Shown here piece by piece: positions 28,921-30,666 of a stretch of DNA of 64,000 bases (its first letter is position 1; each line of letters starts with the position of its first letter). Made by a program: the position numbers and the translations under genes. This DNA is from a virus: UHGV virus genome UHGV-1963645; one strand, given 5' to 3'. The notes under the pieces are model-generated. The model did no database searches, had not been told where the DNA came from, and saw only the letters and a program-made list of their open reading frames with translations.

Positions 28921-29848
28921 CCTCTCACTCCATTATTTAACGAATAAAAAAGCTGCGGTGCCGGGTGCCTCCCAGTGTCCTTTGGCTGGTTATCCACCGT
29001 GGACGGGGAAACAAGGAGAAATGAATGGACTGATATAACCATTTCCCCGCGTGCGCTTAGCCGCATTCACCGCAACGGAAAGAGCATTCTTGGTGGACCT
29101 GTAGATTGGGATATGAACCCGTTACAGGAGAATGCTCTTACCTGTTACGTGCTCCGTTTCGTGGAGCTAACGGCGGGTGATCAGACCGCACCAGACTGGA
29201 CTTATTTCAGCGTTATGCTCATGCCAGAGAATCAAACTGTGATGGTCGGTGCTGAACTCCGACACAGGGTTGTAGCAAGCCCCGCAAAGCGCGCACTACT
29301 GTAGTTGCGGCACATCAGCCTGTGCATTCACCACAATGTTGAGAACACTGGTTGTCACGCTGCAACGCAACATTTATTCGTAGATTGGGATATGACCCCG
29401 TTACGCCAGTGTTCTCAACGTTATAGTGCCGGTTACGGTTCCGGCCAGGCCTCTTCCTCAACGGGGTGTTCTCCATACGGACTACCGTTTATTGGTCGTT
29501 CCTGCGGTTTATGTTGTGAAGCCAGATGCTTATCTTCTGGTTGCTTCAAAGAGCTGCACTTCATCACAACGGTAAGAGCACTCGATGCATTTAAGCCAAG
29601 CCCCATAAGGGAGAATGCCCTTACCTGTTGTGTTGTGATGACCGGTGCTGATCTCCGGCTTGCGGTTATTTCAGACTCTCACGGGCGTTTAATTGCCCCG
29701 CCGAACAGCTCTTTTCCGCAATAGCTGCAATGTCTTTCGCGCATCAGCCTGCGCATTCATCACAACGGTAAGGGTACTTCGTAGGGATTCGAACCCTCTG
29801 CCAAGCACGGCGATCTCCGACGTCGCAAAATACCCTTACCTGTTGTGT

Positions 29849-29924
29849 TGGTGCCGGTTAACGGACTCGAACCGCTGACATCCTGCTTACAAGGCAGGCG
29901 CTCTACCAACTGAGCTAAACCGGC
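29849..29924 (-). tRNA. tRNA-Thr (anticodon UGU)
   Basis: GCCGGTTTAGCTCAGTTGGTAGAGC...CTTGTAA anticodon loop...GGTTCGAGTCC...AACCGGCACCA. Confidence 0.85.
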
Positions 29925-29926
29925 AT

Positions 29927-30001
29927 TGGCGATGGTGGATGGATTCGAACCACCGACCAGTTGGTTAACAGCCAACTGCTCTACCGCTGAGCTACACCAT
30001 C
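29927..30001 (-). tRNA. tRNA-Asn (anticodon GUU)
   Basis: GATGGTGTAGCTCAGCGGTAGAGC...CTGTTAA anticodon loop...GGTTCGAATCC...CACCATCGCCA; 2-nt spacer to tRNA-Thr. Confidence 0.85.
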
Positions 30002-30666
30002 ACTTGCCGGGTACGTCTCCGGCGAGGGCTTCCACCTCCGTATGCTTTTCGGCGCACCGCGCCCTGGCTGCAATTCGGTAACAGGGGATGCACAACCCTG
30101 GCTTCCAGCGTGATTAGCGCCTTCAGCATGACGGGATATACCCGTAAATTCGTGGAACTGTACCCAAAGTGCTGTTAAGCACCGCTGTTACGCTGAAAAG
30201 AAAACGCAACAGGAAAGGACGCTGACCAACAGATGGCCCCTTCTCGTTCATCTGGTTAATCACACCAGCGCCCTTACCTGTTGTGCCTCCCCGTTCCCTA
30301 ATACACAGACGGGGACACTCTGCGGTCGATTTTTTGACGGGGGACGACTCATACCCCGTGGCATCTGGCTTCTTAGGCCGCTACCATCATCAGATCATCG
30401 TTTGCATTTACTTTAATGGTCAGTTTCTAAACCGCCGCAAAGTCGCTAACCATGACGAAAACCCTGAAAAAAACGCCCACCCGAAGATGGGCAAACTGGA
30501 AGCTCGTAACGCACTTCGGCGTTGCCACTTAGGCGCATGGTCAACCTGGCAACTCGGTGGTTTGTCTGGGAGGGCTAGGCCCAGCCATGCTTACCGCCGC
30601 GCCTGTCGCGGCTAACAGCTAAATCGCTCTATAAATCACGATTCATTGAGGCGATATTACACTAAT

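Follow-up and report, generated by a model that had tools for sequence, protein, structure and literature searches.

Repeats around the tRNA genes of a P1-like phage as probable parts of structured RNA modules in the ban leader

What are the short repeats that surround two transfer RNA (tRNA) genes in the ban operon leader of P1-like phages? The question arises from the UHGV virus genome UHGV-1963645, of which a stretch of 64,000 nucleotides (nt; the window) was analysed, and in which an earlier note made from the sequence alone had pointed to a repeat family flanking the tRNA genes and had considered decayed tRNA genes or conserved processing elements as its origin. The window represents a P1-like phage of the RCS47 type, with 98.9% identity to Escherichia phage RCS47 and about 98% to P1, and the repeats fall into an untranslated leader of approximately 1.7 kb upstream of the first open reading frame (ORF) of the ban operon. 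Like ban, tRNA-Asn and tRNA-Thr are encoded on the minus strand of the window. It is proposed that the repeats probably represent the arms of stems and the apical motifs in two families of structured RNA modules, here termed A and B, which are located in the ban leader, co-transcribed with tRNA-Asn and tRNA-Thr, and processed. Together the modules form a set that had not been described and that shuffles freely among phages.

Hairpins and frames on the tRNA-sense strand

The repeat family is real and the positions given in the earlier note are good to a few bases. The 15-mer CCCTTACCTGTTGTG occurs in exact form on the plus strand at 29618-29632, 29833-29847 (noted as 29834) and 30271-30285, and a variant with three mismatches is located at 29135-29149 (noted as 29141); allowing up to three mismatches, there are five matches where 1.1 are expected by chance. 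The 25-mer GTAGATTGGGATATGA(A/C)CCCGTTAC is found at 29101-29125 and at 29380-29404 (noted as 29379), with none expected and none of 100 shuffles reaching this result. A repeat finder also returned a second, inverted set comprising TTCATCACAACGGTAAGAGCACT and its relatives at 29066, 29327, 29560 and 29756. For every 15-mer an inverted counterpart is found at a distance of 40-70 nt (TTCATCACAACGGTAAG...; family D1, pairs I1, I3 and I9), which identifies the 15-mers as the arms of hairpins, and the 25-mer forms the apex of two such hairpins, A3 and A4, reading GUAACGGGKUCAUAUCCCAAUCUAC on the minus strand.

Five A hairpins are encoded on the minus strand. A0 (30206..30285) contains the third copy of the 15-mer and forms a stem of about 30 bp without a bulge (-37.9 kcal/mol, z = -4.93). 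A1 (29761..29847, z = -5.44) starts 2 nt past the CCA of tRNA-Thr, so that the 15-mer copy at 29833-29847 does follow the tRNA immediately on the transcribed strand, as had been observed. A2 (29565..29632) folds with z = -6.21, A3 (29329..29428, z = -7.49) has the divergent arms AUAACGUUGAGAAC / GUUCUCAACAUUGU and carries the 29380-29404 repeat at its apex, and A4 (29071..29149, z = -6.75) combines the variant 15-mer with the 29101-29125 repeat as its apex. Compared with dinucleotide shuffles, 200 per unit, all five fold far better than expected (z = -4.9 to -7.5), and in each case none of the 200 shuffles reached the native value. The consensus basal stem is CACAAC-A-GGUAAGRGC / GCYCUUACC-GUUGUG with the A bulged. 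Stems are predicted to span 18-30 bp, mostly of Watson-Crick pairs, a duplex length suited to RNase III (at least 18-22 bp, about two turns). No Rfam family matches the A hairpin; Rfam matches to miRNA families (mir-142, mir-465 and others) merely reflect long hairpins and were discarded.

A scan of viral contigs with an exact pattern of the arm core retrieved more than 120 loci, in which at least eight unrelated interior classes stand behind the common arms. In the 20-bp basal stem, 95% of positions are paired across 30 distinct arm pairs, and double-sided changes occur at 10 of the 20 pairs, a result matched by none of 500 shuffles; when the partner strand is slid by one to three columns pairing falls to 35-58%. 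Furthermore, the alignment contains 52 G-U cells but only 9 A-C cells, and this excess indicates selection for the helix on the tRNA-sense strand, as opposed to its complement or duplex DNA. The A element is a well-supported hairpin RNA motif that has hitherto been undescribed.

A hairpins are not confined to P1-like phages. A2 and another A hairpin are present in a lambdoid late leader, directly past the tR' terminator and before the holin gene, in the sense orientation, and the inner part of A2 is found without arms in the tRNA array of Felix-O1-like phages. The motif is thus tightly linked to phage tRNA genes and to leaders, namely those of P1 ban, of the lambdoid early-left (PL) operon and of the late operon after tR'. 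A scan of genome contigs with the arm pattern gave 24 matches, against roughly 34 estimated by chance, with one genuine instance in Escherichia sp. MOD1-EC7003, and provides little information beyond a restriction to enterobacterial phages and plasmids.

The A hairpins alternate with three B modules, also on the minus strand. The B frame is composed of a 7-bp closing stem (GUGRUGA/UCAYCAC), two nucleotides, a small hairpin, a variable middle and a last hairpin that abuts the closing strand. In B1 (29635..29763) these are GUGAUGA/UCAUCAC, AU, GCGCA-GGCUGA-UGCGC, the variable middle and CCGG-AGAUCAGCA-CCGG. B2 (29239..29334) is closed by GUGGUGA..CCAUCAC and its hairpin GCACA-GGCUGA-UGUGC covaries with that of B1. 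B3 (28954..29074, or 28943..29074 in a wider delimitation) is STnc100-like, with a run of U past the closing stem, and is of the type of the dicF-dicB element of Qin. Among 16 distinct sequences the frame is 96% paired with double-sided changes at 7 of 16 pairs, and again none of 500 shuffles matches this; B3 folds with z = -2.98. The C/U-rich loop of B3, UCAUUUCUCCUUGUUUCC, resembles an anti-Shine-Dalgarno sequence. B1 is 98% identical to a segment in the PL leaders of lambdoid prophages, where, in mEp460 and E. coli S88, it is in the sense orientation within the long untranslated interval that separates the repressor gene from the first gene of the early-left operon, and the segment occupies approximately 945 chromosomal places in complete E. 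coli genomes.

B3 matches the Rfam model of STnc100 (RF02076) with 32.7 bits (E = 3.5e-5 on a small search of 921 nt) over model positions 31-147, and the match spans the closing stem, GGUGAAU, the 5' hairpin and the terminal GGAGGCACC hairpin. The B3 copies of D6 and Ro157 score 39.6 and 38.0 bits, and the dicF-dicB spacer of K-12 Qin (GUGGUGAAUGCGGCUGAGCGCACGCGG...CCUGGAGGCACCAGGCACUGC), which is nearly identical to the D6 copy, scores 34.4 bits; B1 and B2 are undetected by the model. A relationship to STnc100 has been reported for PasD2 of the enteropathogenic E. coli strain E2348/69 (bioRxiv 10.64898/2026.05.13.724894). In E2348/69, stretch 1658-1829, a 5' frame of the B type, GCAUGGUGAAUCCUCC...GGGAGGCGCCAUGC, makes up PasD2 together with a 3' tail that has the published seed UGUGAG and a terminator, and judging from this arrangement the B frame may be a reusable scaffold placed ahead of different seeds. 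Like STnc100 and PasD, which are Hfq-dependent prophage small RNAs (sRNAs) of Salmonella and pathogenic E. coli, the B modules have the closing stem, GGUGAAU, the small hairpin and the terminal GGAGGCACC-type hairpin, and like them they are located in the sense orientation in phage operon leaders. Unlike PasD, the B modules of the window are without the 3' tail carrying a seed and terminator of its own, with B3 ending in a U-run and B1 and B2 having neither, and unlike both they occur as three tandem copies interleaved with hairpins and tRNAs.

The dicBF operon of Qin (ydfABC-dicF-dicB) provides the closest parallel to the leader as a whole. The conserved flank upstream of dicF matches the dicF-like region of P1, a terminated short RNA is found at the dicF position in both, a B3-type element immediately precedes the first downstream protein gene, and both dicBF and ban are early operons under repressor control. 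The leader differs from dicBF in that DicF itself is missing (the DicF model RF00039 has no match in the window at E<=10, the K-12 control scoring 76.7 bits) and in being about 1.4 kb larger, with a tag frame like that of transfer-messenger RNA (tmRNA), two tRNAs, five A hairpins and two further B modules. The shared upstream homology and the B3-type element indicate that the ban leader is an expanded dicF-dicB locus. By sequence comparison, the B modules are a distant, sub-threshold branch of the STnc100/PasD/dicF-dicB family, which joins the classic dicF locus with STnc100/PasD and the ban leader of P1 in a single evolving family. The sites to which the A hairpins are linked are also those that encode prophage sRNAs of pathogenic E. 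coli (DicF, PasD and STnc100).

Relation to tRNA genes and exchange of cassettes

The modules are closely associated with tRNA genes. Wherever a locus contains a tRNA, the A hairpins are co-oriented with it (156/156), and 146 of 162 A hairpins are found no more than 600 nt from a tRNA. The slot 2 nt past tRNA-Thr is occupied by five different A interior classes across loci, and the modules of Klebsiella siphoviruses and of other contigs are interspersed among genes for tRNA-Ser, Arg, Met, Pro, Leu and Ile. In the GenBank records of D6 and Moogle the tRNA features are placed on the strand opposite to the ARAGORN and Rfam calls, which is either a record error or a display artefact.

Could each repeat unit then be what is left of a tRNA gene from a formerly longer Asn-Thr array? 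The interior of A1 does contain a perfect match to the T-arm consensus, GGTTCGAATCC at 29785-29795 on the minus strand (motif GGGUUCGAAUCCC), which abuts a 7-bp acceptor-like stem, UAUUUUG/CGAAGUA. Only four matches to GGTTCRANTCC exist in the 64 kb, against 0.29 expected; all are on the minus strand, one in each of the three tRNAs and one in A1. The other units are without it, and its rarity makes it plausible that a tRNA- or tmRNA-derived fragment resides inside A1. One other A class carries GUAGAG-UUCGACU-CUCUAC, A3 and A4 carry GGGUUCAUAUCCC, in relatives true tRNAs (Tyr, Ser-UGA and Arg) occupy slots that are held by modules here, and the spacing of the B frame, a 7-bp closing stem, 2 nt, a hairpin and a last hairpin contiguous with the closing strand, is itself tRNA-like. 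Against this, the Rfam tRNA model RF00005 (29-bit cut-off) recovers only the three annotated tRNAs and no repeat unit at E<=10 in a 921-nt search, and ARAGORN at default settings likewise reports three tRNAs and no unit. ARAGORN run with -ps70 gave scattered calls on both strands that are not credible. When each unit was compared with 69 distinct phage tRNAs by blastn-short the only match was the 11 nt of the T-arm in A1; the segment 30464-30286 shows a weak 13-nt match to tRNA-Ser (E = 0.01). The repeated arms are not parts of tRNAs, most interiors have no tRNA feature, and the arms covary to keep a helix of 18-20 bp, which argues for selection of the hairpin and not for decay. Decayed tRNA genes are therefore a very unlikely general account of the family: the arms are not tRNA remnants, though some hairpins plausibly hold a tRNA- or tmRNA-derived fragment.

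The same holds for the stretch CACCGGTCATCACA, which had been taken to resemble a degraded tRNA 3' end. It is present, on the minus strand at 29647-29634 directly ahead of the 15-mer copy at 29632, but it is the last hairpin and closing strand of B1. The corresponding CACCGGUCAUCACA, B1 last hairpin plus B1 closing strand, resembles the 3' end of tRNA-Thr because in both a stem strand and a 7-nt closing strand are followed by an A hairpin. The other suggestion of the earlier note, conserved processing elements, stands in so far as these are conserved RNA features of the transcribed strand that are attached to tRNA genes, with both structure and conservation among relatives being strong; that they are processed belongs to the mechanism proposed below.

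The modules are extensively rearranged among relatives. The window has the order A0-tAsn-tThr-A1-B1-A2-X-A3-B2-Y-A4-B3 and is one of at least 14 module orders found in P1-like loci. P1 is without B1 and A2, with the junction in the 3' arms, and P7 is without A1 and B1, with the junction in the 5' arms. In other variants a tRNA-Tyr is inserted, tRNA-Asn is replaced by tRNA-Arg, B2 is replaced by B1, or a different A hairpin follows tRNA-Thr. Segment Y (29150..29238, minus strand) and A4 are replaced in some relatives by a tRNA-Ser(UGA)-like gene. Segment X (29429..29564, minus strand) is present in all P1-like architectures and is thermodynamically ordinary (z = +0.5); it has one local hairpin, GAAGC-AACCAGA...UCUGG-CUUC, followed by ACAAC. 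Since the junctions fall inside the common arms, the arms also behave as short homology blocks for recombination, and cassette exchange through them offers a concrete route by which phages gain and lose tRNAs and regulatory RNAs.

This raises the possibility that the repeats are elements of DNA, either recombination linkers or mobile inverted repeats similar to miniature inverted-repeat transposable elements, with RNA folds that are incidental. Deletion and replacement junctions inside the arms, identical arms around unrelated interiors, arms that amount to terminal inverted repeats, and near-identical modules in unrelated phages (P1-like, lambdoid and Klebsiella siphoviruses) would all be expected of such elements, as would the match of Felix-O1-like phages to the A2 interior alone. 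However, a block of DNA homology needs neither an inverted repeat nor compensatory pairing, the strand-specific excess of G-U over A-C is not explained by duplex DNA, and the orientation to tRNAs and operon transcription is fixed. No target-site duplications were seen at the unit borders by inspection, and all five copies in the 64-kb window are located in one leader. We consider it unlikely that the repeats act primarily at the DNA level; such a role is compatible with structured RNA modules and does not exclude them. Several known classes of repeat or structured element were also considered and set aside. The arms misfit the integron attC core consensus (RYYYAAC / GTTRRRY) by inspection, and no integrase gene is adjacent. 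Comparison by eye with the CRISPR repeats of E. coli showed no similarity, and type III toxin-antitoxin repeats and retron RNAs were rejected on the grounds of architecture and of an absent reverse transcriptase gene. Antitermination sites of the nut/boxB or put type were considered for the PL/PR' leader position, but the loop of the small B hairpin has 6 nt and is not the boxB pentaloop. PasA/PasC were dropped as A hairpins, as PasA is antisense to its neighbours and the probe sequence gave no match.

Transcription of the ban leader and its opposite-strand reading frames

The operon was delineated by transfer of the P1 annotation (NC_005856) to window coordinates with an offset of 26649. In the P1 and P7 records the region lies between the C1-controlled ban promoter/operator, beside dmt, and the first protein genes of the ban operon. 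The Pban promoter and the bivalent C1 operator Op72, with the transcript start, map to 30653..30682 on the minus strand, and the P7 record places both the tRNAs and ban under Op72 control. Downstream follows the dicF-like region of the P1 annotation (30457..30558, minus strand), homologous to the upstream flank of dicF in E. coli Qin. At its end an intrinsic terminator with seven U (30493-30467, minus strand) occupies the position of DicF in Qin, so that in the window this position is taken by another short RNA, GCCGAAGUGCGUUACGAGCUUCCAGUUUGCCCAUCUUCGGGUGGGCG + U7, ending about 175 nt downstream of Pban. The location of the terminator implies that read-through is required for expression of the tRNAs and ban. 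tRNA-Asn (GTT; 29927..30001) and tRNA-Thr (TGT; 29849..29924) were called on the minus strand by ARAGORN and Rfam, and no internal sigma-70-like promoter was found inside the array. The first protein gene, a 78-aa ORF, starts at 28920 on the minus strand and is followed by an SPFH-domain lipoprotein gene, tRNA-Met(CAT) and ban.

It is proposed that processing of a single Pban transcript would yield the tRNAs, small stable RNAs and the mRNA of the downstream genes. By their size, the A stems could be sites of double-strand processing of the RNase III type, or could insulate, and a candidate for single-strand cleavage of the RNase E type, as described for dicBF, is the conserved junction GUUGUG-AUGAAU, which is single-stranded. 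Faubladier, Cam and Bouche are said to have found in 1990 that RNase E and RNase III release DicF from the polycistronic dicBF transcript. The A hairpin 2 nt past the CCA of tRNA-Thr could define or protect the tRNA end, and by analogy with STnc100 and PasD the B modules are probably sRNA scaffolds. From these features we infer that nucleases of the two types may be involved, that the modules may accumulate as RNAs and that they may have regulatory targets. On the DNA level, homology between arms would allow the exchange, deletion and insertion of complete cassettes, including tRNA genes, among phages. There are precedents for such an organisation: phage T4 produces the species 1 and 2 RNAs from its tRNA region, and the R sites of the T7 early region are RNase III processing hairpins. 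As in T4, the tRNAs of the window are co-transcribed with other structured RNAs, and like the T7 sites the A elements are long imperfect hairpins that punctuate a polycistronic transcript and are sequence-related within one genome. Unlike either system, to which they bear no sequence relationship, the A hairpins keep a specific basal stem and bulged A across unrelated phages and have exchangeable interiors.

Several points weigh against processed structured RNA modules as the explanation. RNase III has low sequence specificity, and its action leaves unexplained why the basal stem of the A hairpins is kept in sequence beyond what pairing demands; recent recombinational spread or a sequence-specific partner yet to be found could equally be behind this. 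The invariant core (AAC-A-GG / CC-GUU) is partly a matter of ascertainment, because the loci were fetched with a AACAGGTAAG...CTTACCGTTG bait, and in units that are independent of the bait (A3 and the mEp460 copy) only the outer AAC...GUUGUG is kept, the remainder being replaced with compensating changes. B1 and B2 are thermodynamically unexceptional (z = -0.9 and +0.7), and the STnc100 score of B3, 32.7 bits, is under the Rfam gathering score of 47. Data on expression or RNA ends for the region were not found in the sources searched, which included literature on the P1 ban operon and tRNAs, on P1 RNA-seq and on tRNA-like prophage sRNAs. Finally, CRISPR interference knock-down of this region in P1 caused no plating defect (PMC10695390), so that any function would be accessory.

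The plus strand of the leader carries two annotated ORFs, upl (29113-29304) and plp (29305-29724), which are judged not to be genes, in agreement with the earlier suspicion that they are spurious. If they were real the repeats could be duplicated coding segments: both are annotated in P1, RCS47 and JL22, Upl matches two PHROG families, though these are composed of the same annotated ORFs, and both can begin with M-N/T-P-L within the 25-mer, a start inside this repeat giving them similar N-termini. The distribution of unique single-nucleotide polymorphisms (SNPs) across 110 related loci is at odds with coding. The SNPs of upl fall on codon positions 1/2/3 as 5/8/4, with 12 nonsynonymous and 5 synonymous changes, and those of plp as 19/19/24, with 41 nonsynonymous and 19 synonymous changes, 2 stops and 3 frameshifting indels. 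Neither ORF thus has a codon-position bias, and nonsynonymous changes exceed synonymous ones in both, whereas the neighbouring genes display a strong purifying pattern, with 22/13/75 in ban, 7/3/85 in the SPFH lipoprotein gene and 84/66/223 in dmt. Moreover, Plp is rewritten between relatives by whole-cassette indels, plp of P1 overlaps tRNA-Thr on the opposite strand, Pfam has no family for either product, and in RefSeq/PGAP annotation of P1-like plasmids only tRNA-Thr and no coding sequence is annotated over 28940-29850. That upl and plp encode proteins is accordingly considered extremely unlikely. P1 is a reference phage from which many annotations have taken over the 'genes' upl and plp, at a locus where the evidence points to a non-coding RNA of the opposite strand.

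Two observations concern the downstream part of the operon. The 275-aa ORF at 27876-28703 (minus strand) encodes a lipoprotein with an SPFH/Band 7 domain (Pfam E = 1e-30); it is labelled 'putative serine protease' in RCS47 and Ro157c2YLVW, and replaces tciABC of P1 in this phage type. Between tRNA-Met(CAT) and ban, the stretch 27775-27600 (minus strand) is homologous to the first 200 nt or so of the mEp460 PL leader (UUUGGUUGUAACACGGCGU.UGGCACAUGCGUCGUUAGCGGUCUGG...), and represents a further leader module common to P1-like and lambdoid phages.

A tmRNA-like tag frame in the leader

Between the terminator and A0 the minus strand reads, from 30412 to 30373, AGUAAAU-GCA-AAC-GAU-GAU-CUG-AUG-AUG-GUA-GCG-GCC-UAA. 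This corresponds to the resume consensus AGUAAAU followed by a tmRNA-like resume codon and a tag of ten codons, ANDDLMMVAA* (30373..30405, minus strand). The tag of E. coli tmRNA is ANDENYALAA. Past the tag stop a candidate H-type pseudoknot, ACGGGG..GUCG..CCCCGU..CGAC (30323..30360, minus strand), was read by eye from the sequences, and its second stem is different yet complementary in STEC308 and in phage Moogle. The tag reads ANDDLMLMAA in the lambdoid late leader and ANDNVFLAVA in the tRNA array of the Felix-O1-like phage Moogle, and the frame is also conserved in Klebsiella phages. In loci fetched by the A-hairpin pattern alone, the resume motif is always followed by exactly ten codons, and the variants ANDDLMMVAA, ANEEVYLAVA, ANDNQYLAVA and ANDDVVLMAA differ by synonymous and conservative changes.

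The Rfam model of permuted tmRNA (RF04321) matches the tag with 24.1 bits (E = 0.0045, gathering score 47), covering only the coding part and skipping the tRNA-like domain. The latter, with its acceptor G3-U70 pair, T-arm and 3' CCA, was not recognised by ARAGORN at default settings or by Rfam, and at relaxed thresholds ARAGORN placed it inconsistently. According to a survey of 2014, ssrA was known in phages only from mycobacteriophages and Bacillus phage G (PMC4131195). Many environmental viral contigs, including many in IMG/VR, contain the same resume motif in complete and mostly permuted, two-piece tmRNAs that share with the window UAAAU-GCA-AAC-GAU and a ten-codon tag ending in (V/L/M)AA or AVA and UAA. 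The versions in P1-type, lambdoid and Klebsiella phages differ from these in having no recognisable tRNA-like domain, and the canonical versions are without A or B modules: among 33 tag-bearing viral loci with a canonical tmRNA there are no A and no B modules, whereas 27 of the 59 loci without a tRNA-like domain, some of which are probably truncated contigs, have an A and 23 a B module within 900 nt. The usual order is tag, A, B, tRNA.

These findings invite the question of whether the modules belong to a non-canonical tmRNA-like system, in which the tag frame is without a tRNA-like domain of its own and A and/or B supply it or cooperate with it. The conserved resume consensus and ten-codon tag, also in loci retrieved independently of the tag, the match of the permuted-tmRNA model to the coding part alone, the presence of A and B next to the tag only where the tRNA-like domain is absent, the usual order, and the T-arm and acceptor-like stem of A1 all speak for such a system. 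The B modules, however, lack a G3-U70 pair, an encoded CCA and a canonical T-loop, the relaxed ARAGORN placements are inconsistent, and the co-occurrence of tag, A and B is explicable by common ancestry of a single enterobacterial phage leader region. A system of this kind is rather unlikely. It is with the same reserve that a more specific scenario may be put forward, in which the tag template of P1-type, lambdoid and some Klebsiella phages would be derived from a tmRNA that has lost its tRNA-like domain, and the array would be a split or re-engineered trans-translation device, or a decoy titrating SmpB/tmRNA factors, within a tRNA operon. If it were true, the A hairpins and tRNA-shaped B frames would not be a set of unrelated sRNAs. 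For the proposed structured modules of the ban leader, the analysis has in any event brought to light a conserved neighbour, a tmRNA-like tag frame without a tRNA-like domain, that is directly testable.

In Citrobacter phage Moogle a circularly permuted tRNA-like unit is found in the stretch 1799-1870, where a T-arm and ACCCUUC-G-CCA are followed by 4 nt and then by GAAGGGU and a D-loop-like sequence. The tag follows some 500 nt downstream of it, past three tRNA genes and a promoter-like site, and ARAGORN joins this unit and the tag frame as one 'permuted tmRNA'.

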